Position numbers and translations under genes: made by a program. From NCBI RefSeq assembly GCF_006345805.1, contig NW_021831877.1:1-63663 (forward strand): a stretch of 63,663 bases of DNA. The letters are read 5' to 3'. Each line of letters opens with the position of its first letter. Position 1 is the stretch's first letter. Positions 13,758-60,036 of this stretch are shown here, piece after piece. Under the pieces are notes generated by a model. The model did no database searches. It was not told where the DNA came from and saw only the letters and a list, made by a program, of their open reading frames with translations. Source of the DNA: Octopus sinensis (lineage: Eukaryota).

Positions 13758-14011
13758 TTGTTCTCCGGTTTTACCGGGAAATAATTGAATAATTTCTTAC
13801 CGTTGAACTGTTAGCCACTGTGGCTTTTTATTTACGTGACTATACATAGTCCTGCCAGACTATTTTCGAGCCCCTCCCCCGAATGGGGGTGGGAATTGGA
13901 ATTTTTGAACTGCTTTTTTGAACTACTTTGGAAGAAAAACTTTCTATAGGTTTCCCAGTTTTGTGGGAAACCAATACTCGTAATTTTTGTGTTGTCTAAT
14001 TTCAACAGAAT

Positions 14012-15136
14012 AATGTCTGTTGAAATTATTCACGAAAGTAGTGCTCTTGAGGAGAGCAATGTTAAAAAATTTTCTGAGGTAGCCGCAGTGGCTACCGAGA
14101 AAATTGACATCGATGTCAACCAGCTCGTCGAGCTATTTAAAAAAATGCAAGAGGAGGGTGGTGATGTTAAAATATCACCCTCCGCCAGTATCGTGGAGAC
14201 CGAGAAGCGGACCGTAGTGTTTAAAACTTTCTGTCCACAAAGCAGAAGGTTCAAACACTTTGAAAAAAGTACCATCGAGAAATGCCTGTCCCCGATTTGG
14301 AAGGACATCGTGTACGTCGCCAGGGGACGGGCATATGGCACTGTGGATGTCCGCTTCTCGGGGGAAGAAATGGCCCGCGGGCATTCTGTAAACCCCCTAA
14401 AAACCAAGGAGGTGGTACTTTTTCAAGCTATAGGGGACGCAGGACGTCCCGGTCAGGATTGTAGAAGCCCCGCCGGAAGTAGATCCAGTAGAGGTAGTGG
14501 CCGCCCTATTATAAAAGGGCGGACAAAATAAAAATACTAGAAGTAACATGCTCTACCTCTCGATTTTGGCTCGGCGTAACATTAATATATTAATTCAAGG
14601 AACAGCGGAGGACCTACAGCTCCTTCCTGAGAGGGTGCTCGTGGGCGAGAACGTAGCCCTCAGGGTACAGGTCGAAGGCCGAAAACCCACCTGTTACGCC
14701 TGCGGCAAAAAGGGCCACATTCGTGTAGACTGTCCAGACAAGCAAAAGAAACCGCAGACACCAGGCCCCAGATAATAAAAAAGTCCCTACCCTTGCAACA
14801 CACCTACCCCTACAAAAACAAAATATCCCACTCCTGCTGTTACGGTGCCAACCCCAAAACAGACTGAAGAAAAAACCCAGCCCTCGCACTCACAACCCCT
14901 ACACTATTAAAACCTCCCACCCCCCTAAAAACTGCGGCGCCTACCGAACAAACTTTGCTACCCCAGACGATACCATGGAGGTATCAAGAGGGGGATTTAC
15001 ACCAGTTCGTAAAAGAATTCGTGCAGCATCCCCGTCCACATCCCCTACAAAAAATAATAAAAACAAGACACACACCACAGACACGGAAAAAAAAATCCCG
15101 CTCAACTGGCCCAAAAAAGAAGACAAAAAGAAAATG
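14012..15136 (+). pseudogene. Tx1/L1 ORF1 (gag-like, zinc knuckle), frameshifted
   Basis: CYACGKKGHIRVDC (CX2CX4HX4C) preceded by VEGRKP; Pro/Lys/Thr-rich tail; split over several ORFs. Confidence 0.8.
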
Positions 15137-15423
15137 AACTCATATTAATTGAATTCGACACACAAGACAAATACATAAACGATATTGTGGTTCAGCATCA
15201 GTCAGCAAGACTGTACAACAAAAATACAAAGATCGAAATAGACACGCGTGGATTGCGGAAACGACGTTCAAACAATAAAAGACAGACACCCAAACGCCAT
15301 CCGGCATGTCGCGAACTTGCCGGACTATCTGAAGAAAGAGGAGAAAGAAGGGGCCCACAAACGTGTGGTGAGGTCGGCCCCCACCTCTCCAACGAAATGT
15401 AAGTAGAACTTTTACTTTTTGTA

Positions 15424-17510
15424 ATGGCTTCGCTTAACCTTGGTTGTTTAAATGTGCGTGGTCTGAGTTCGAAGTGGAAGCAGGCTTGTTTCCTCGACGA
15501 CCTCAGATCACATGATATACATGTGATGGTTGCTACAGAGACCAAGCTGGACAGCCTACAAACCTTCTCGCCTCTCCTGAATGGCTACGAGAAAATCATG
15601 TCTCCTGGCCAGACCGGAGGGCGAGGGGGCGTAGTGGTACTGATCCGTAAAGACTTGGCTCTACAGACAAGTACAGTCTATGTAGACCCAGAAGGTGGGC
15701 TGGTCGTCCTTGATGTGACATACAGCAGTAAGGCCTTCAGGTTGATCGGACTCTATGCACCTTGTGCTAGAGGTTTCCAAACTGATTTTTATCGGCGCCT
15801 AGAGGGCTTTCTCGTGACGTCGAAGACTTTAGGGGACTTTAATGCTATCGTTGACGTACACATCGATAGCGTTGGCTCGATCTATAGGAAAGTGAACTCA
15901 CGTCTCGTGGATCTGCTTAAGCGGTTTCAGCTAGCAGATCGTTACAGACTTGACCATCCGAACGTCCCAGAGTGGACCTGGATGAGTGGCGACGGAAGGT
16001 TCAAGTCTTATCTAGACAGGATAGTGATAAGAACTAGAGATAAGTCTAGTTTTAGTTGTCCACAGCTCGTCCAGTGCCCTATACTGACCATAGAATGGTC
16101 ACGTGTAGACTGGACATAGATAGCACACTTAAGATAGGAACCGGCTACTGGAAGCTGAACAAGTCTATTTTGACGCGAGGCATACCGTAGCCGGATTAAG
16201 GTGTTAGTGCAGAGGGCGTTAACCGGAGCCGTGGTTAATAACCGGTGGTGGTTCACCCTCAAAAGAGCCATTCGATTCGGTCCATTAGATTTAGTAAACA
16301 ACTAAGACTAGATAGGGCTAGAATAGAAGGGCAACTAGTTAAGAACTTAGAGGAGGTTGAGGTTGGCTCTGCATCTCACATTTTAGCGGCGAGAACGGCA
16401 TTAGACCGTCACCTCAAAACCAAACATGAGGGATGTAGAGTCCGGGCTAAAGTACGAGCATTGGCCGTGAGGGAATTAATGTTGCCGGATGGTCCCGTAC
16501 GATAGAAACACAGCGTGGAAACGATGCCACAATTGGGTCTCTTGTTGATGAAAACGGATGCACGATCAAGAAGCGGGACGAGATGTGTGAGGCACTTCAC
16601 AAGCACTTCGCCGAGTTGTTCGGGAGGTGCGGGACGCTGGATCATGGTGAGGCCCTTAGGGACTTCCTGTCTGGTGGCCCGCGCCTCTCGACACGAGAGG
16701 CTGAGTGCTGTGAAGGGCCAATCACAGCCGAGGAAGTAATCGAGGTGTTGGGCAAGTGCCCCGGGGAGAAGTCGCCGGGTCTCGATGGTCTGCCCTATGA
16801 ATTTTAGAAGTATGCCAGACTTGTTCGGGCACCTGCTGGCTAGCGTCTACGCCAACTGGCAGCAGAATGGGAGAATTCCAAGTCTGCGAGCCGGAGGCGG
16901 TGACGTTGATCAGGAAGGACCCGAACAAGGGGGACGAGATAGGGAACTTCAGGCCTATACTCTGTTAAACACAGAGTTAAAGATTCTGGCCAAGGTGCTA
17001 GCAAAAAGGTTGGCGCGGGTCGTGGACAAACTTGTCGGGAAGCGCAAACGTGCGCTATCCCCGGCAGAACGATCCACGACAATCTCCACCTTATACGCTA
17101 CTCCTTAGAGAGGGTGGGGAAGCTTTCTGGCGCAGGGGAGCACTGGTACATTTAGACCAGTCCAAAGCATTTGATAGGGTCGACCATCGGTACCTGGCGG
17201 CGGTCCTCGGAGAGGCTGGCCTAGGCCCGACCTTTCGAGGTTGGATGGATCGCTGCTTTGTATAGCGACATCGAGTCTGTAGTCAAAGTGAACGGTTCCT
17301 TTTCGAAGCCGTTCAGGATCGAGCGTTCAGTTCGTCAAGGGTGTCTCCTGTCCTCGCTCCTATACGTATTGGCTCTTGAGCCTTTGCTGCGGAAGTTGGA
17401 GGCACTAGGGGGCGCGCCGCATGATCTATGGTGTGGAAGAGGAGCTACGGCGTATGCGGATGACACCTCCATCATCGTGGCAGACGATGGCTGGGTGTCC
17501 GTCCTTCGAC
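15424..17510 (+). pseudogene. Tx1/L1 ORF2: AP endonuclease + reverse transcriptase, frameshifted
   Basis: LNVRGL, ETK, GDFNA, SYLDRI (APE); KSPGLDGLPYEF, LLNTELKILAKVLAKRL, LDQSKAFDRVDH, VRQGCLLS, AYADD (RT). Confidence 0.92.
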
Positions 17511-35551: not shown

Positions 35552-35594
<43 letters not shown>

Positions 35595-36210
35595 AGAAAA
35601 CTAACTTTTTAACAGGTAATTTTTACACGCTAAAAGAATTACCTGTTAAAGGTAGTTTTCTCTTGTTTTAACTGTACCTATTTTTTTATATTGAGAATAT
35701 GTTGTCTATTGACTTTTTATACATGCAAGGCCACTGTTGGTGAAATTTCTAAGAATATTCGCTACCCTCTTTCTCTTTCTTTTCTCTCTTTTACTTGTTT
35801 CAGTCATTTGACTGCGGCCATGCTGGAGCACCGCCTTTAATCGAGCAATTCGACCCCGGGACTTATTCTTTGTAAGCCCAGTACTTATTCTATCGCTAAG
35901 TGACGGGGACGTAAACACACCAGCATCGATTGTCAAGCAATGCTAGGGGGACAAACCACAAACACACACACATACACATATAGATCTATACATATATACG
36001 ACAGGCCAGGCTTCTTTCAGTTTCCGTCTACCAAATCCACTCACAAGGCATTGGTCGGCTCGGGGCTATAGCAGAAGACACTTGCCAAGATGCCACGCAG
36101 TGGACTGAACCCGGAACCATGGGTTGGTAGCAAGCTACTTACCACACAGCCACTCCTGCGCCTATAACCACTCTCCTGCGCCTATATATCTTACGAATAT
36201 GATTTTAGCA
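35045..36210. repeat. Long nested inverted repeat (right arm interrupted by SINE A)
   Basis: Left arm 35045-~35270; right arm ~35556-35768 plus 36183-36210. Each arm contains a hairpin aagagaaaactac..aacaggtaatt/aattacctgtt..gtagttttctctt. Second, inner IR at 35344-35402 / 35502-35560. Confidence 0.88.
35770..36182 (-). mobile_element. SINE family A
   Basis: Full body with duplicated head end. Confidence 0.88.
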
Positions 36211-36331
36211 TTCGAAGATCGGTTCGCATTTTCCATTTACTGCCGACTGAAACTGCGCTTGCACGGTGAATTTTGAAAATTATAACAAATAATGATGAGA
36301 ACGTGTTATTTGTATCTAAATTATATGTTAC

Positions 36332-36698
36332 TTACTCTTTTACTCTTTACTCTTTTACTTGTTTCAGTCATTTGACTGCGGCCATGCTGGAGCACCACCT
36401 TTTAGTACTTATTCTAATCGGTCTCTTTTTGCCGAACCGCTAAGTGACGGGGACCTAAACACACCAGCATCGTTGTCAAGGCAATGCTAGGGGGACAAAC
36501 ACAGACAACCAAACCCACAGATATACATATATATACATATATACGACAGCTTCTTTCAGTTTCCGTCTACCAAATCCACTCACAAGGCATTGGTCGGCCC
36601 GTGCTATAGCAGAAGACACTTGCCAAGATGCCACGCAGTGGGACTGAACCCGCAACCGTGTGGTTGGTTAGCAAGCTACTTACCACACAGCCACTCCT
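36332..36698 (-). mobile_element. SINE family A
   Basis: Body with (ttactct)n tail. Confidence 0.88.
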
Positions 36699-36699
36699 A

Positions 36700-36772
36700 A
36701 CGGTTACTGATGAGGATTCGCCTAGCAAATTATTTTATTTGCTAAAGAAATCTGAAACCAAGGTATAACCGT
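36700..36772 (+). ncRNA. Type I hammerhead ribozyme
   Basis: Stem I acggtta/taaccgt; core CTGATGA (36707-36713); stem II ggatt/aatct extended by tagcaaat/atttgcta; GAAA (36754-36757); minimal stem III A-CC-aa-GG-U; predicted cleavage after GUA at 36765. Confidence 0.8.
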
Positions 36773-36920
36773 AAAAAAAATAACAAGGTAAAAGTTTTCA
36801 TTTTTCATTCCCTTCGAAAATTGCTCTTAAATGTGGTTTTGGTCGTTTTGACTGCTTCTTCTAGCGTATAAAAATTACCTGTAAAAGGTAGTTTTCTCTT
36901 GTGTTTAAATGTACACTATT

Positions 36921-49301: not shown

Positions 49302-50282
49302 TATATATTCTTCTACATACATGTGTATAATACGAATATGTGCGTCCGTGTGTGAGTGTGGTATGTGTATGACTACGTAGTGTTGGGTGAGTGTATGATT
49401 GAGAGAGAAAGGGAAGGCGAGAAGGAGGAGAGGAAATTTCGTTAAGTTTTGTTTCCGCTAAAGAATTTCATAAAATAACAAAATTCTATTCAGTTTTGGT
49501 ATTGAAGTGTGACATAAACATATCGCGAAAATTGTTGCGGTTTATAAGCAATAAAATTAACAGCAATGACAACAACAACAACAACAACAACAACAACAGC
49601 CATAACTGTCATAGCAGACGCATCAATATCGCCACTATCACCATTAGCAACAACAACAACAGCAAGAAACAAAAACAAACAATGTCAAAAAATTAAGCAA
49701 TAAGAACCAACAGAAAATGGTATTGCTGTTGCTGACAATGGTGATGTTACTGGTAGTGATTCTTACGCTGATATAAAGCACCGTTTGTAAAGGTTTTGGT
49801 ATTGTTCTGAAGAGTGATGATAATTCTTTTGTTTCAGACATTTGACTGCGACCATGGAAATATTTTTTGAAATTGATACGAAGTTTTAGGAAACTGAATT
49901 GACCCCAGTGTATGACTGGATAGTATATGACCCTTTGTCGAGCTTCGGTGATGAATCATTTGGTATTGTAATCTGTTTCTTGTACCTCTCTAATGAGTTT
50001 CTTCTCTTTTCGAGTATCTCTGTGATTCATTCTTCTTCAATCATTCTTTTCCATCGACCAACTTGGAATTCTAGACCCACAAACCCAAAAATAAAGAAAA
50101 GAAAAACTTGTGCACCCTCATTAACAGACAAAATGACTATGTAATGCACACTCACGCACATACACACACACACACGCGCGCGCAAACATACATTAAAAAT
50201 ATGGAAGCAAATGTATATACACTCTCACACAAACGCATGTTCTTGTCCCACTTTGTAATTTATATTTTATATTTTATATTTG

Positions 50283-50289
<7 letters not shown>

Positions 50290-50321
<32 letters not shown>

Positions 50322-50762
50322 CAAACAAATAGACAGACAGACAAATACATACATACATACATACATATATACATACATATATATATACATACATATATAC
50401 ATACATACATACATACACACACACATACATACATATATACATACATATATACATACATACATATATACATACATACATACACACATACATACATACACAC
50501 ATGTATACATACATACATGCACACATACATATATACATACATACATATATACATACATACGTACATACATATATACATACATACATACATACATACATAC
50601 ACACACATACATGCATACATACATATACATACATACATACATACATACATACATACACATACATACATACATACATACATACATACATACATACAGATAC
50701 ATACATACATACATACATACATACATACATACATACATACATACATACGTACATACATACAC
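50290..50762. repeat. (TA)n/(CATA)n microsatellite
   Basis: Direct inspection. Confidence 0.95.
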
Positions 50763-51614
50763 GTTCATAAGAAGTTTTGATTAAAACTATCGATGAATCC
50801 AATCGATTGCTGAAGTCTTAAGCCTCATCGAAGGGATGTACAACCTGCATTGAGAACCTCTGATTTAATCACTCAAGTTGTTGCAACCATTAGATTGGTA
50901 TCAAATTTCAGGCAGCACTCATGCGGAACCAAATTAGATATTTCCTCCAATGAGTATGCGTGGACATTATTGCTCTTACATGGATACATTTGAATAAAAA
51001 ATTAAAGTGAAATACCACCAAAGATAAATTAAGCTACCAGTCAATACTTGAGGCGATGCTATCCGCTAAGCCCTTGCCCTGACAATCTTGGCATGGCGTA
51101 ACGAATTCGCATCGTCGTCAGAGAGCTGGATAAATATTTTTTGCTGATATTGTTTTCGTCACTTGATGTTTTCTGTTCACATCGATTCAATATCAACATT
51201 GTTTTTCATTTTTCTAAGGTCGACAAAATGAAATACCAACTCGGGACAATAAACTGGTAGAAATGATTGCTCTGTGGCATTCCTTCTCACTCTCCCGCTT
51301 CATAAACTCTCCTGAGACAAATGCTGATGACAAGATATAATTCTTGCTGTGCATCATACGTAAATCACATTCTTTTATTCTTTTATCTCTCTACTTGCTT
51401 CAGCCAAGATAACTGTGGCCATGCTAGAGCACCGCCTTGAAGAGTTTTAGTCAGACAAATAAACCCAAGGACTTAATTTTTTAAGCCAAGTATTTATTTT
51501 ATCCATCTCTTTTGCTGAACCGTTAAGTATATTTATTTCGTTGCTTGTTTTAAATTATGCATTGGAATTTGTATTGATTGCATGAGAGTGTTCTGTCTAT
51601 AATTTCCCTTACCT

Positions 51615-51681
<67 letters not shown>

Positions 51682-52247
51682 TTTATATATTATATTTATA
51701 TACTTATATGTATATGATAGATAGATATGTGTGTCTGTGTGTGCGCACATGTATGTTTATATGTGTATATATATGGATATGGGATGCGTCTTCAGTCGAC
51801 ACAGAGACACCATCTGTTAGTGACTGGATAAGCTATACGCATGTGCTTTAAACGAAATGAAATTTGCTTCGGGACATAAGAACAGAGAAAGTTTGTTAAC
51901 CGAATTTTTTTTCAAGACAGTGTCGTTGCGCTATAATGGAATTCGATATGTATTCTTATCAAGATAGTTCAGATAAATACTTTAACAGAGTTTTGGGTCA
52001 AAAACAGTTGAGGAAAAGCTTTTGCTTCAACTAATACAACGTGGGTAATTACATACATGCATATATGCGTGTGTGCACGCGCGCGCGCACACACACACAC
52101 GCTCACACATACATATATACATGTATGTGTGTGTGTATATATATACAGTATATATATATATACAGTGTATATATTATATATACAGTATATATATATATAT
52201 ATATACATTGTATATAATATTATATATATATATATTATATATCTATA

Positions 52248-52286
<39 letters not shown>

Positions 52287-52342
52287 GGTTATCAGTAATA
52301 ATAAGAAAGAAAGAATAAAATACGGCAATGAATGAAATGACG

Positions 52343-55300
52343 GCATTTTGTCTTGGCTACACGCGGGTGGAGGGGCTGGTGACACAAACTTTCATTCAAA
52401 CTTTGAATTTCGTGGTACTGGTCATGCTTTAGCTCGCTCTGATTGAGATGATGCATTCTAGTATCTCAAAATTAATATACAATTATTCATATTGTAGTAT
52501 CCTGCGCCGATGAGAGAAGAAGTACGGGTAAAGTAGAATTTTCTAATTCTTACGCTATCCTAAAACTTGATCTCGAAACGTACGTCCGTAGGTAACGTAA
52601 AATTGCATGATGGATTGCCGTCATTTCATTCTTTCTTTCTTACCTGTCTGTGTTTGCCTTTCAAGTGCTGTGTTTTTACTGAGATCCCCCTTTTAGTAGA
52701 AGGAATAGCTATATCTCTTTGACTGCTATTTCTAAATTCGGTGTGTTGGTGAGGCAATTCGTTGCTAAACCCTAATTACTTAGTATTACTTAAATTTTCC
52801 TCGAATGGGGCTTTTACATGCTGAAATCTACTTGGTGTAATTGATAATTATCCCTAATTAATTAATTTCACCTTTTATTATTACTGATAACCATATTTTA
52901 TCCCAGTAAATGACCACAGCATTTTGTCTTGTCTACACGCGGGTGGAAGGGGGCTGGTGACACAAACTTTCATTCAAACTTTGAATTTCGTGGTACTGGT
53001 CATGCTTAGCTCGCTCTGAGTTGAGATGATGCATTCTAGTATCTCAAAATTAATATACAATTATTCATAATTGTAGTATCCTTGCGCCGATGAGAGAAGA
53101 AGTACGGGTAAAGTAGAATTTTCTAATTCTTACGCTATCCTAAAACTTGATCTCGAAACGTACGTCCGTAGGTAACGTAAAATGCATGATGGATTGCCGT
53201 CATTTCATTCTTTCTTTCTTACCTGTCTGTGTTTGCCTTTCAAGTGCTGTGTTTTTACTGAGATCCCCCTTTTAGTAGAAGGAATAGCTATATCCTCTTT
53301 GACTGCTATTTCTAAATTCGGTGTGTTGGTGAGGCAATTCGTTGCTAAACCCTTAATTACTTAGTATTACTAAATTTTCCTCGAATGGGGCTTTTACATG
53401 CTGAAATCTACTTGGTGTAATTGATAATTATCCCTAATTAATTAATTTCACCTTTTATTATTACTGATAACCATATTTTATCCCAGTAAATGACCCCATT
53501 TTTGCTTGGCTACACGCGGGTGGAAGGGGGCTGGTGACACAAACTTTCATTCAAACTTTGAATTTCGTGGTACTGGTCATGCTTTAGCTCGCTCTGAGTT
53601 GAGATGATGCATTCTAGTATCTCAAAATTTAATATACAATTATTCATAATTGTAGTATCCTCCTGCGCGATGAGAGAAGAAGTACGGGTAAAGTAGAATT
53701 TTCTAATTCTTACGCTATCCTAAAACTTGATCTCGAACGTACGTCCGTAGGTAACGTAAAATTGCATGATGGATTGCCGTCATTTCATTCTTTCTTTCTT
53801 ACCTGTCTGTGTTTGCCTTTCACAGTGTGTTGTTTACTGAGATCCCCCTTTTAGTAGAAGGAATAGCTATATCTCTTTGACTGCTATTTCTAAATTCGGT
53901 GTGTTGGTGAGGCAATTCGTTGCTAAACCCTTAATTACTTAGTATTACTTAAATTTTCCTCGAATGGGGCTTTTACATGCTGAAATCTACTTGGTGTAAT
54001 GATAATTATCCCTAATTAATTAATTTCACCTTTTATTATTACTGATAACCATATTTTATCCCAGTAAATGACCACAGCATTTTGTCTTGGCTACACGCGG
54101 GTGGAAGGGGGCTGGTGACACAAACTTTCATTCAAACTTTGAATTCGTGGTACTGGTCATGCTTTAGCTCGCTCTGAGTTGAGATGATGCATTCTAGTAT
54201 CTCAAAATTTAATATACAATTATTCATAATTGTAGTATCCTGCGCCGATGAGAGAAGAAGTACGGGTAAAGTAGAATTTTCTAATTCTTACGCTATCCTA
54301 AAACTTGATCTCGAAACGTACGTCCGTAGGTAACGTAAAATTGCATGATGGATTGCCGTCATTTCATTCTTTCTTTCTTACCTGTCTGTGTTTGCCTTTC
54401 AAGTGCTGTGTTTTTACTGAGATCCCCCTTTTAGTAGAAGGAATAGCTATATCTCTTTGACTGCTATTTCTAAATTCGGTGTGTTGGTGAGGCAATTCGT
54501 TGCTAAACCCTTAATTACTTAGTATTACTTAAATTTTCCTCGAATGGGGCTTTTACATGCTGAAATCTACTTGGTGTAATTGATAATTATCCCTAATTAA
54601 TTAATTTCACCTTTTATTATTACTGATAACCATATTTTATCCCAGTAATGACCACAGCATTTTGTCTTGGCTATACGCGGGTGGAAGGGGCTGGACACAA
54701 ACTTTCATTCAAACTTTGAATTTCGTGGTACTGGTCATGCTTTAGCTCGCTCTGAGTTGAGATGATGCATTCTAGTATCTCAAAATTTAATATACAATTA
54801 TTCATAATTGTAGTATCCTGCGCCGATGAGAGAAGAAGTACGGGTAAAGTAGAATTTTCTAATTCTTACGCTATCCTAAAACTTGATCTCGAAACGTACG
54901 TCCGTAGGTAACGTAAAATTGCATGATGGATTGCCGTCATTTCATTCTTTCTTTCTTACCTGTCTGTGTTTGCCTTTCAAGTGCTGTGTTTTTACTGAGA
55001 TCCCCCTTTTAGTAGAAGGAATAGCTATATCTCTTTGACTGCTATTTCTAAATTCGGTGTGTTGGTGAGGCAATTCGTTGCTAAACCCTTAATTACTTAG
55101 TATTACTTAAATTTTCCTCGAATGGGGCTTTTACATGCTGAATCTACTTGGTGTAATTGATAATTATCCCTAATTAATTAATTTCACCTTTTATTATTAC
55201 TGATAACCATATTTTATCCCAGTAAATGACCACAGCATTTTGTCTTGGCTACACGCGGGTGGAAGGGGGCTGGTGACACAAACTTTCATTCAAACTTTGA

Positions 55301-56851
55301 ATTTCGTGGTACTGGTCATGCTTTAGCTCGCTCTGAGTTGAGATGATGCATTCTAGTATCTCAAAATTTAATATACAATTATTCATAATTGTAGTATCCT
55401 GCGCCGATGAGAGAAGAAGTACGGGTAAAGTAGAATTTTCTAATTCTTACGCTATCCTAAAACTTGATCTCGAAACGTACGTCCGTAGGTAACGTAAAAT
55501 TGCATGATGGATTGCCGTCATTTCATTCTTTCTTTCTTTCTTACCTGTCTGTGTTTGCCTTTCAAGTGCTGTGTTTTTACTGAGATCCCCCTTTTAGTAG
55601 AAGGAATAGCTATATCTCTTTGACTGCTATTTCTAAATTCGGTGTGTTGGTGAGGCATTTGTTGCTAACCCTTAATTACTTAGTATTACTTAAATTTTCC
55701 TCGAATGGGGCTTTTACATGCTGAAATCTACTTGGTGTAATTGATAATTATCCCTAATTAATTAATTTACCTTTTATTATTACTGATAACCATATTTTAT
55801 CCCAGTAAATGACCACAGCATTTTGTCTTGGCTACACGCGGGTGGAAGGGGGCTGGTGACACAAACTTTCATTCAAACTTTGAATTTCGTTGGGTACTGG
55901 TCATGCTTTAGCTCGCTCTGAGTTGAGATGATGCATTCTAGTATCTCAAAATTTAATATACAATTATTCATAATTGTAGTATCCTGCGCCGATGAGAGAA
56001 GAAGTACGGGTAAAGTAGAATTTTTCTAATCTTACGCTATCTAAAACTGATCTCGAAACGTACGTCCGTAGGTAACGTAAAATTGCATGATGGATTGCCG
56101 TCATTTCATTCTTTCTTTTTACCTGTCTGTGTTTGCCTTTCAAGTGCTGTGTTTTTACTGAGATCCCCCTTTTAGTAGAAGGAATAGCTATATCTCTTTG
56201 ACTGCTATTTCTAAATTCGGTTGTGTTGGTGAGGCAATTCGTTGCTAAACCCTTAATTACTTAGTATTACTTAAATTTTCCTCGAATGGGGCTTTTACAT
56301 GCTGAAATCTACTTGGTGTAATTGATAATATCCCTAATTAATTAATTTCAACTTTTATATTACTGATAACCATATTTTATCCCAGTAAATGACCACAGCA
56401 TTTTGTCTTGGCTACACGCGGGTGGAAGGGGGCTGGTGACACAAACTTTCATTCAAACTTTGAATTTCGTGGTACTGGTCATGCTTTAGCTCGCTCTGAG
56501 TTGAGATGATGCATTCTAGTATCTCAAAATTTAATATACAATTATTCATAATTGTAGTATCCTGCGCCGATGAGAGAAGAAGTACGGGTAAAGTAGAATT
56601 TTCTAATTCTTACGCTATCCTAAAACTTGATCTCGAAACGTACGTCCGTAGGTAACGTAAAATTGCATGATGGATTGCCGTCATTTCATTCTTTCTTTCT
56701 TACCTGTCTGTGTTTGCCTTTCAAGTGCTGTGTTTTTACTGAGATCCCCCTTTTAGTAGAAGGAATAGCTATATCTCTTTGACTGCTATTTCTAAATTCG
56801 GTGTGTTGGTGAGGCAATTCGTTGCTAAACCCTTAATTACTTAGTATTACT

Positions 56852-56853
<2 letters not shown>
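52343..56853 (+). repeat. Head-to-tail tandem array, ~7.8 copies of a ~580-bp non-coding unit (retrozyme-like)
   Basis: Units start at ~52343, 52919, 53496, 54077, 54657, 55235, 55818 and 56398 (last one partial). They differ mainly by 1-nt indels; (TA)n lies on both sides. Confidence 0.97.
52501..52592 (+). ncRNA. Type I hammerhead ribozyme (unit 1; repeated at ~53080-53172, 53662-53751, 54239-54330, 54817-54908, 55398-55489, 55983-56072, 56561-56652)
   Basis: Stem I cctgcg/cgtagg; core CCGATGA; stem II gaga/tctc extended by aag/ctt, gggta/tatcc and gtagaatt/aattcttac; GAAA; palindromic stem III ACGTACGT; predicted cleavage after GUC at 52586. Confidence 0.8.
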
Positions 56854-56884
<31 letters not shown>

Positions 56885-57665
56885 CATTGATATATATATA
56901 TATATGTGCGTGTGTGTGTTTATGTATAAGTACGTTAGTGAGTGTATGTACATACATAGGACCTTCTAGAAAGCTGTATAAGGATGTCTATCGTTGATGC
57001 ATATATGCTGCAACTGAATCAACTAACTGTACATGAATGCTACATTAAAGGGAATTAGGGCACTTATGCAGCAGAAACACGTGTCGGATTGGAATCCAAT
57101 GTGAATCTAATGAGAATAAGCTTGTAAGAAACAAGTTTTGAAGATATTGTATAATTCTAGATTCTTCTTTATGATGTCTTAATTATTCATATACATATAT
57201 ACATGTATGCATATATGTATGCATTCATATATATATATATACATATATGTACACGAGCATAGACAATCTATGTAACTATCTGTCTATTTATGTATGAAAC
57301 GTAATCAAGTGACCAACCGGACCATCAGATGTTGTGACATATCACTGGTCACAATGCACTTTGTTTTGTTTTAGCCTTCGAACGACGCCACCCCGCTGGC
57401 TAGGGGAGCAGGCCGACGTTTCCACCTGATCGAAAGGGTGACTGGAGCAACGTGAAAGGAGGTGTTTTGTTCAAGGACACAACGCACCGCCCGGACTGGG
57501 AATCGAAACAACGGTCTAGCGATTATAAGTGCAACGTCCTAATCACTAGGCCACGCACCTTCACACAAATACACACGCACGCACACACACACACACACAC
57601 AAACACATACACACACACGTATATACGTGGAGTTGAATACATGTCCGGTCATAGATATATATATG

Positions 57666-57930
57666 CTCTTTTATTCTTTTACTTGTTTCAGTTATTTGAC
57701 TGCGGACATGCTGGAGCACCGCCCTTAGTGGAACAAATCGACACCAGGAATTATTCTTTGTAAGCCTAGTACTTATTCTATCGGTTTCTTTTGCGGAACC
57801 GCTAGGTTACGGGGACGTAAACACACCAAAATCTGTTGTCAAGTGATGGTGGAGGGACAAACACAGACACACCCACAAATATATACATATATATATATAT
57901 ATTTATATACATATACGACGGGCTTCCGTC
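57666..57930 (-). mobile_element. SINE family A, 3' part
   Basis: Diagnostic body. Confidence 0.82.
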
Positions 57931-58159
57931 AGTTATCTGTGGGGACATATTTTGTAGAAAAAAGACATAGCAATCTTTTGGCCGCTATTTCTAAAGTTTT
58001 CGGTATGTGGTCATTAATAGACCCTTAATTATTGTTATGTATATATATATATATATAATATCTTTGCAGTTTTACCGTTTTGGAAATCAGCACACATGTT
58101 TTCAACGGTTTTCCTTATGAGATTGACAGAGGTAGTCTAGTTTAACTCTAGGCGTTAAG

Positions 58160-58215
58160 GGTCACTGATGAGGATTAAGATGGTCTAGATCAAAATCGGA
58201 AATCGCGCTCCGACT
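58160..58215 (+). ncRNA. Degenerate type I hammerhead motif
   Basis: ggtca CTGATGA ggatt..aatcg GAAA tcgcgc TC cgact; mismatches at the bases of the stems. Confidence 0.5.
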
Positions 58216-58409
58216 ATGTACGCTGGGGACTTACTTCCCTTTGTAAGTCATTAGGACAGTGCTTTTCTTGCTTTTTGAGTTGTATTAGTTCTTATTTTTA
58301 GCAAAAGTGGTGCTAGTCACTGCCATCTGTCACTGAGGGGGCTAAAAATATTTACTACAGAATCCAGCGGTCACTGGTGCACACGTGTCCGTGCGCGTAG
58401 ACCATACAT

Positions 58410-58476
58410 TCAGATAGGTAGGTAGATAGATAGACAGACAGGCAGACTAACAAACAGACAGACAGACAGACAGACA

Positions 58477-58531
<55 letters not shown>

Positions 58532-58547
58532 TAGATAGATAGATGTT

Positions 58548-58640
<93 letters not shown>
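58410..58640. repeat. (GATA)n/(GACA)n microsatellite
   Basis: Direct inspection. Confidence 0.95.
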
Positions 58641-59524
58641 GTTTCTTTATTGGCCACACAGGGCTGCACACAGATGGGACAAGTTACAAGGTAGAGCTTT
58701 TCTTTTGGGGGAAAAAAAAGGATGGATGGATAGAATGATAGATAGATAAATAATACGTACATGTGTACATCGTTTTGAACATATAAAGGTATGTGTTTAT
58801 ATGTATTTCGAGAGAGAGGCTATTTAAATATTCTGTAAATAACCTCCTTTCTCTCCCTCCCTCCATCTCTCTCCCTCCCTCCCTCTCTCTCCATTCCTCC
58901 CTCTCTCTTTCTCTAAGTATTTTTGGATATAAGCAACAAAGGCTTGTACAACATTTTCGCCACTCTTTTGGTCACCTCAGTAAGTTCCAGTGACGAGCGT
59001 TCTAAGATGACTGCTACTATTTTGACCACAAGTTTTATGTCAGTGAATCAAAATTAACGGAAGCCTGCTCTACCCCTGGGGAATCTCTTCCACAGATACG
59101 CGTACCCTTAACCTAGTCCTCAGGGAGATTCAGCGTGACACAGAATATGACATGGCTAGCCTTTTGAGGTACTGGCACCACTCATTTTTGCCTGCTGAGT
59201 GAACTGGAAGACGTGAAATAAAGAGTCTTGTTCAAGGACACAACGCGTGACCGGGAATTGAACTCGTGACCTTACGATCCTGAGCTGAATACCCTAACCA
59301 CTAAGCCACGCGCTTTCACACGCCTATTTAACCCATAAACGGGGTCACTGACAGGGGTTAGCGTACCCGATCAAAACGGCACTCTGAGTAATGGTATTCC
59401 ACGCTTACTACAACGCCAGAGCTTCCGAACAGGATTTTCACTACTGGATAGAGTTCAGTGTCACACCCAGGATATGTGTGCGTGTATGCGAGCGTGCGCG
59501 CGCGCGTGTGCGTATATATATATA

Positions 59525-59766
59525 TATTCTTTTATTTGTTTCAGTCATTTGACTGCGGCCATGCTAGAGAACCACCTTTAACCTAACAAATCGATCCCAA
59601 GACTTATTCTTTGTAAGCCCAGTATTTATTCTGTCGGCTTATATTGTCGAACCACTAAGTTGCATGGACATAAACACAGCAACATCGGTTGTCAAGCGAT
59701 AATGGGAGGGGGACAAACACAGACACACAAACACACACACATACACACACACGCACGCACACACAG

Positions 59767-59814
<48 letters not shown>

Positions 59815-59980
59815 TTATATACAACGGGATTCTTTCAGCTTCGGTGTACCATATTCACTCACAAAGCTTTGGTCAGCCCGAGGCTAAAGTAGAAAACACT
59901 TCCTCAAGGTACCACGCAGTGGGGCTGAACCCGGAACCATGTGACTGGTAAACAATCTACTTACCACACTGCCACGCCAT
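59525..59980 (-). mobile_element. SINE family A, full length
   Basis: Diagnostic body and head. Confidence 0.85.
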
Positions 59981-60036
59981 AATATAATTTAATTAATTGA
60001 TGGAGACGCGGCATCACTCTATCCTAGCGTGTGTTG

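Follow-up and report, generated by a model that had tools for sequence, protein, structure and literature searches.

The 63,663-nucleotide window analysed here, contig NW_021831877.1 of the Octopus sinensis assembly GCF_006345805.1, contains within a (TA)n microsatellite a tandem array of units that carry a type I hammerhead ribozyme fold (Table 1). Eight cut-site anchors are spaced 578-583 bp apart and the direct arm comprises 7.79 units, and the longest stop-to-stop frame lying wholly within the array has at most 98 aa, with no open reading frame (ORF) for a reverse transcriptase (RT) plus GIY-YIG protein. The initial annotation of about 7.8 non-coding units of about 580 bp in (TA)n therefore stands, but its array start at 52343 has to be corrected: the left end of the element lies some 60 bp before that point, at about 52283, where a short inverted piece of the unit is found. 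The unit has a GC content of 37%, and a search of both its strands gave no match to an RNA polymerase III B-box. Tandem Repeats Finder did not list the array because of its period limit of 500. In pairwise comparisons of the seven full monomers, 1-14 columns have substitutions and 5-20 have gaps. Most of these differences are private indels of a single base, and no substitution is common to two or more units of the window. We infer that the private indels are long-read assembly noise.

Table 1. The array and its surroundings in the window. Unit positions (u) are counted from u1, the first base 3' of the predicted GUC cut; the reference unit is window 54903-55483.
Feature	Position	Strand	Remarks
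(TA)n target tract, left flank	52136..52286	.	
Vestigial inverted arm	52283..52304	-	reverse complement of u289-310; outward-pointing 'long' 3' end
Junction patchwork	52302..52342	-	short inverted unit pieces, about u28-56
Direct arm, 7.79 tandem units	about 52340-56856	+	5' end ~u330; 3' end u210 ('short' end)
Type I hammerhead, unit 1	52501..52592	+	stem I 52501-52506/52587-52592; C4 at 52508; predicted cut after 52586
Predicted cuts, later units	after 53166, 53745, 54324, 54902, 55483, 56066, 56646	+	
Conserved 3' module, unit 1	52691..52890	+	about u105-u300; predicted multi-hairpin
Bipartite motif RCTGCTATTTCTA-N2-7-TTCGGTRTGYKG	52722..52748	+	135 nt 3' of cut site; common to sister families
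(TA)n target tract, right flank	56852..56905	.	

The fold is composed of stem I (CCUGCG/CGUAGG), stem II (GAGA/UCUC) with a structured extension of 53 nt, GAAA, a stem III that is an 8-nt palindrome of the dimer type (ACGUACGU), and GUC. That every unit holds a complete type I hammerhead, as had been claimed at first, is true in part: the predicted cut after C52586 was correctly placed and seven of the eight hammerheads match the type I descriptor, but the third (near 53660, cut 53745) lacks one core C, and the core is CCGAUGA, i.e. the U4C variant, the canonical CUGANGA core being absent from the array. The CCGAUGA core also occurs in subfamilies A and B of the repeat, and the canonical core in subfamilies C and D and at loci L064/L069. 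Folding of the 106-nt hammerhead region gives z = -2.5. An Rfam scan of 50000-60000, suggested earlier as a check, gave no hammerhead family among 54 matches at E<=1, which were microsatellite-driven microRNA matches and weak noise. Dimer-type hammerheads are active in multimers and quiet in circles (PMC4209133; here and below, statements on the literature refer to the available part of each source). The predicted fold of the circular monomer agrees with this logic, as it contains stems I and II (P 0.91-0.97) but lacks stem III (P 0.0). The U4C change is reported to lower activity considerably in vitro, although it is tolerated in a viroid in vivo (PMC3088659). Slow, dimer-dependent cutting is thus predicted from the C4 core and the instability of stem III, and not an efficient cut after every GUC.

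The array is a single insertion from a dispersed family of non-coding hammerhead repeats. This family is probably a non-autonomous Penelope-type retroelement (a non-LTR retrozyme; LTR, long terminal repeat), of which a predicted 580-nt circle would have been reverse-transcribed over repeated turns into (TA)n. The dispersal is evident from the genome itself. A search of the 2.72 Gb gave 2,848 candidate places, of which the best 40 were scored, and 183 matches; the loci with L numbers are best matches or first places listed and not a random sample. The exact 17-nt cut-site context has 2,896 genome copies (reversed control pattern, 0), the exact full-core pattern 132 copies of two subfamilies (control, 0), and the bipartite motif 9,014 exact matches (control, 0). 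This motif identifies sister families whose period is about 560-640 bp, and ten representatives of the family and its sisters all carry a hammerhead-like fold 114-135 nt before it, with a stem I of 5-6 bp in nine of ten despite differing sequences and a palindromic stem III in eight of ten. Conservation of the fold is restricted to one strand. In a hand-picked set of 21 closer copies, two compensatory pairs were found (C-G/U-A in stem I and G-C/A-U in stem II), as anticipated for a functional fold, and 95% of stem cells are paired compared with 26-47% when the stems are slid, a measure that the relatedness of the copies inflates. As stem pairing is kept across copies and sister families, the sequences indicate that the hammerhead fold is under selection in the family, with cutting by the C4 subfamily a prediction. 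The dispersal and the covarying stems uphold the earlier assignment to the non-LTR retrozymes. The idea that the unit is unusually long for this class can be dropped, as vertebrate families range from 51 to 972 bp and the fish mean is 650 bp (bioRxiv 10.64898/2026.07.22.740005).

Could the array have been expanded by the assembly, or be an inert satellite in which a hammerhead-like match arose by chance? The small 63.7-kb contig and the indel noise in the units would fit an expansion, but many large contigs hold independent arrays of several units, each in unique flanks, contigs of the public runs X1, X11 and X15 contain the join between units, and the stems covary, so that this explanation is hardly credible.

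Retrozyme-like sister families were met at L136-L138, L053/L158, L125, L140 and L142. The 560-bp sister family has a U3/A8 core variant (L137), and in several sister families the base of stem II shows an A facing another A, or one additional A.

The 39 other best-matching loci mostly consist of (TA)n, an inverted arm, a direct arm and again (TA)n, with the 3' ends of the sense strand pointing outward and the 5' ends meeting at variable points, often with 1-5 overlapping bases. The tandem and inverted, 5'-truncated structure thus recurs in the family, as do the (TA)n flanks that indicate microsatellite targeting. All 16 opposite-strand neighbours less than 2 kb apart have their 3' ends outward (counted by eye in the first 100 listed cut sites). 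The outer ends fall at two places about 110 nt apart, at about u197-210 (short) or u292-315 (long), and they are paired in a strict manner: 31 of 39 two-arm loci could be classed, eight having an unclassable end, and 30 of these 31 combine a short with a long end, with one short+short and no long+long pair (binomial p = 3e-8; 11 named overlapping or duplicate loci and the loci lacking the motif on both strands were set aside). The window insertion follows the rule, with a long end on the left and a short end on the right. Each of the two terminus sites is preceded by a hairpin that ends in an ACC(C)TT(T)A-like run within the conserved 3' module, and we infer that the module is a candidate recognition signal for an RT/endonuclease. 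Its structure is a lead and not proven, as the consensus fold has a covariation term of -0.42 kcal/mol with mostly one-sided changes, at a single-sequence z of -2.45.

Classical L1-type twin priming on one linear RNA is mostly unsupported, as the 5' end of the direct arm rarely abuts the priming site of the other arm; L046 and L055 are exceptions. The insertions L037 and L041, separated by 124 kb on the same contig, are near-identical and also resemble each other in the right flank; this pair probably reflects a segmental duplication or a duplicate in the assembly.

What other elements might leave such a layout? Helitron-like and MITE-like elements can likewise have inverted ends, lie in (TA)n targets and form tandem arrays, and in principle the repeat could be a DNA-level mobile element, spread by a Helitron-like rolling circle or as a MITE-like foldback, in which the hammerhead is incidental. 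However, the inner breakpoints of the inversions are variable, there are two alternative outer ends and no fixed terminal repeats, conservation of the hammerhead fold is confined to one strand, and the layout matches that of the Penelope-like elements (PLEs) of this genome, which makes a DNA element very improbable. A plant-type LTR retrozyme, with type III hammerheads in LTRs around an internal region, is ruled out by the type I topology and the pure tandem units.

Intact PLE frames of 775-883 aa that encode an RT plus a GIY-YIG domain at the C terminus are present in this genome, as found by a GIY-YIG search (150 of 5,029 candidates scored) and two protein searches. They have a CxxxxCxxC linker, which we take to suggest the Neptune or Nematis group. 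The 775-aa family (L165-L172) has pseudo-LTRs (pLTRs) of about 576 bp, each with one minimal hammerhead whose core is CCGA in most copies and CUGA in a few, and at L167 a long direct end is combined with a short inverted end, about 40 nt apart. An 811-aa family has no hammerhead by the type I descriptor; six of its two-arm copies could be assessed, and four of these clearly pair a short with a long end, about 60 nt apart. The earlier proposal of a Penelope-like mobiliser gains from this shared two-arm, short/long-end layout, and on the strength of the insertion signature we regard mobilisation by a PLE as very likely. L165-L172 are a young intact PLE, several copies of which are 99-100% identical. 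Its hammerhead core is U4C, while U4 is found in L171, a more diverged copy. The U4C core in the youngest PLE and in the youngest retrozyme may possibly be a convergence. Matches of 70% at L092 and L106 were considered as pLTRs of a partner and rejected, as they are separate insertions of a sister family beside PLEs.

The arrays also carry a record of their template. Substitutions amount to 0.5% within an arm, 0.7% between arms and 2.8% between loci, and locus-fixed variants are present in all readable units (T265C in 8/8 units of L035, T382C in 9/9 units of L040). At least four haplotypes that are only 1-3 substitutions apart each fill long homogeneous arrays (window, L034, L035, L039, L040). 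The period of the arrays examined is the full unit, regardless of the 5' breakpoint, and runs of 9 and 14 consecutive cut-site copies occur. At the predicted cut site, the junction u581/u1 is exact in 165 of 173 copies; for the youngest set this is 78/84, compared with 64/66 and 63/68 at control junctions. Of 109 arm 5' ends, a single one falls within 5 nt of the cut site, compared with 1.9 expected at random (20 named duplicate or distant-family loci were set aside). As the junctions are exact and 5' ends do not pile up at the cut site, a cleaved linear monomer is not the usual template, and for the same reasons template jumping between cleaved linear monomers is disfavoured. Repeated copying of one monomer per arm, as from a circle, accounts most simply for the clonal haplotype arrays, and we hold a circular template to be moderately likely.

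Two other accounts have to be weighed at this point. The same two-ended, PLE-driven insertion could use an uncleaved linear multimer transcript, with a weak C4 hammerhead that rarely cuts and no circle needed. Exact junctions and the lack of a 5' pile-up are equally expected in this case, the U4C core is carried by A and B, the youngest subfamilies, as well as by the most recent copies of an autonomous PLE, and multimeric retrozyme RNAs are known in axolotl (PMC7229834). Such a multimer would however require a single-monomer bottleneck at each step to fill long arrays with at least four near-identical haplotypes, the arrays could only shorten over generations, yet runs as long as those mentioned exist, and the fold is conserved across families, wherefore we consider this route rather unlikely. 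Alternatively, a PLE-type insertion of 1-2 units could come first and then expand in place as a satellite, by unequal crossing-over or replication slippage. This model has been proposed (bioRxiv 10.64898/2026.07.22.740005), many insertions are indeed short, and clonal units with arm-specific variants would also be expected, such as the T at u354 of L039, which occurs in 5/6 left-arm units and is confined to that arm. But the youngest copies, which are 99-100% identical between chromosomes, already have 3-8 units per arm, often in both arms, which leaves little time for an expansion, and a period of one full unit at any 5' breakpoint also speaks against it. We therefore judge a secondary expansion improbable.

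Several points weigh against the favoured circle-templated insertion. Clonality and exact junctions alone cannot separate a circle from an uncleaved, homogenised multimer, a few mosaic columns are found within long arrays (L039, L040, L049), and a third junction control was uninformative (30/73). With respect to the ribozyme, the U4C core of the window is a known weakened natural variant (PMC3088659), and of nine Xenopus retrozyme dimers one was cleaved in vitro (bioRxiv 10.64898/2026.07.22.740005). The covariation consists of two pairs inherited along subfamilies, and the pair count is not above that of shuffles (180/500). As to the partner, blastn found no similarity between the unit and the terminal regions of three autonomous PLE families, and in a shuffle test of two pLTRs against the unit, 61/200 and 136/200 shuffles scored as high. 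The earlier expectation of dispersed arrays of variable copy number was confirmed within this genome; a link to PLEs by homology was not seen in the three families compared.

Contigs from public runs (3 of 14 runs, their RNA origin only guessed) cover the whole unit in all 29 bins, and two of them (X5 record 25, X11 record 10) span the cut site with no extra letters, although contigs cannot separate circle, multimer and DNA. As the RNA origin is a guess, these contigs are not counted as evidence of expression. Most variants listed in these contigs belong to other haplotypes or subfamilies. At window 54979-55083, contigs of X1 and X11 (RNA guessed) have clustered A>G differences that are mostly absent from X15. 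These could reflect adenosine-to-inosine editing of double-stranded RNA from two-arm insertions, or other copies or species.

A putative cycle by a PLE would combine these elements as follows. In read-through transcripts of an array, two hammerheads would pair by means of their palindromic stem III and cleave behind GUC, a step that C4 probably makes slow. The released monomer would be ligated into a circle, which would be stable because stem III is predicted not to form in it. The GIY-YIG/RT protein of an autonomous PLE would then bind the conserved 3' module and cleave the (TA)n tract, whereupon each of the two freed DNA ends may prime on an A/U-rich site of the sense RNA, at ~u200 and ~u305, respectively. 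Each RT would pass the ligated cut site for up to ~14 turns and stop at random, and the two cDNAs would finally be joined at their 5' ends. We tentatively suggest that the insertions are footprints of such a double-ended rolling-circle reverse transcription, in which a Penelope RT/endonuclease acts on a structured module of a 580-nt circular RNA with two fixed priming sites 110 nt apart, one for each (TA)n strand. If true, this would explain in general the tandem, inverted and one-sided-tail structure of Penelope insertions, and the independent U4-to-C changes of the most recent retrozyme and of the most recent autonomous PLE would mean that a slowing of the ribozyme was selected, which keeps templates intact.

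How does the octopus family relate to known systems? By its structure it is a non-LTR retrozyme of a known class, and the class is thus not new. Like other metazoan non-LTR retrozymes, it has non-coding tandem units of <45% GC with one type I hammerhead per unit, dispersed as dimers to multimers (PMC7229834; bioRxiv 10.64898/2026.07.22.740005), for which templating by circular RNA and mobilisation by PLEs have been proposed in the same two sources. In contrast to these, the octopus family is mostly two-armed, with strict short+long ends, a 3' module common to sister families and a U4C core, and while RNA circles have been shown for metazoan retrozymes, the circle of the octopus family is a prediction from sequence. 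An inverted layout is not described in the main text of PMC7229834, where the word "inverted" is absent, or in the available text of bioRxiv 10.64898/2026.07.22.740005. The endonuclease-containing (EN+) PLEs Neptune, Naiad, Chlamys and Penelope/Poseidon likewise combine partial tandems with an inverted, 5'-truncated copy, carry a tail at a single end and favour (TA)n (PMC8557442); the octopus unit differs from them in having no ORF, a tail of ~110 nt instead of 30-40 nt, and no homology to the three PLE families compared. Non-autonomous Chlamys elements such as MRC1 likewise form multicopy head-to-tail insertions that are attributed to a PLE, but their 3' ends are similar to those of their autonomous partners (PMC8557442), and no such partner homology was found for the octopus unit. 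PLE clades with an N-terminal endonuclease are described there as having no canonical hammerheads. The minimal PLE hammerheads (PMC4209133) share the type I fold, the short palindromic stem III, the enlarged helix II and a dimer dependence that is predicted here, and their U3-A8 core variant recurs in the sister family L137; the differences are the much longer helix II extension of the octopus hammerhead (53 nt between 4-bp stem arms) and its C4 core.

What is new in the literature available is the PLE-type insertion signature, which is not described there for retrozymes. A full-text search, which included few subscription papers and no supplements, gave no cephalopod retrozyme and no two-arm end rule for retrozymes; a name for the repeat may already exist in the PLE lists that supplement PMC8557442 and PMC4209133, or in repeat databases. 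How PLEs come to form tandem and inverted insertions with a tail on one side is described as unresolved in PMC8557442, and the role of retrozyme circles as PLE templates is a hypothesis based on co-occurrence and pLTR homology (bioRxiv 10.64898/2026.07.22.740005; PMC7229834). The octopus family ties the two together through insertion anatomy. It provides a 580-nt substrate on which two start sites are mapped, natural insertions by the thousand and, in the same genome, intact PLE frames, and therefore makes a target-primed reverse transcription templated by circular RNA directly testable.

Elsewhere in the window, a relic copy of the 3' motif at 57982 stems from a sister family. Two sets of broken frames, RT-like on the minus strand at 961-2364 and ORF1/AP-endonuclease-like on the plus strand at 13950-16119, are presumably LINE-like by family resemblance. 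A second hammerhead element lies at 35592-36920, with (TA)n on both sides and a canonical CUGAUGA type I fold at ~36702-36770; its left end is an inverted copy of its right end, SINE-like copies are nested in it, and a 75% match is found in L165. Further unrelated type I hammerhead repeats, some of them in tandem, were met at L117 (spacing ~470), L192 (504), L100/L102/L152 and L099, and hammerhead repeats thus appear to be diverse in this genome.

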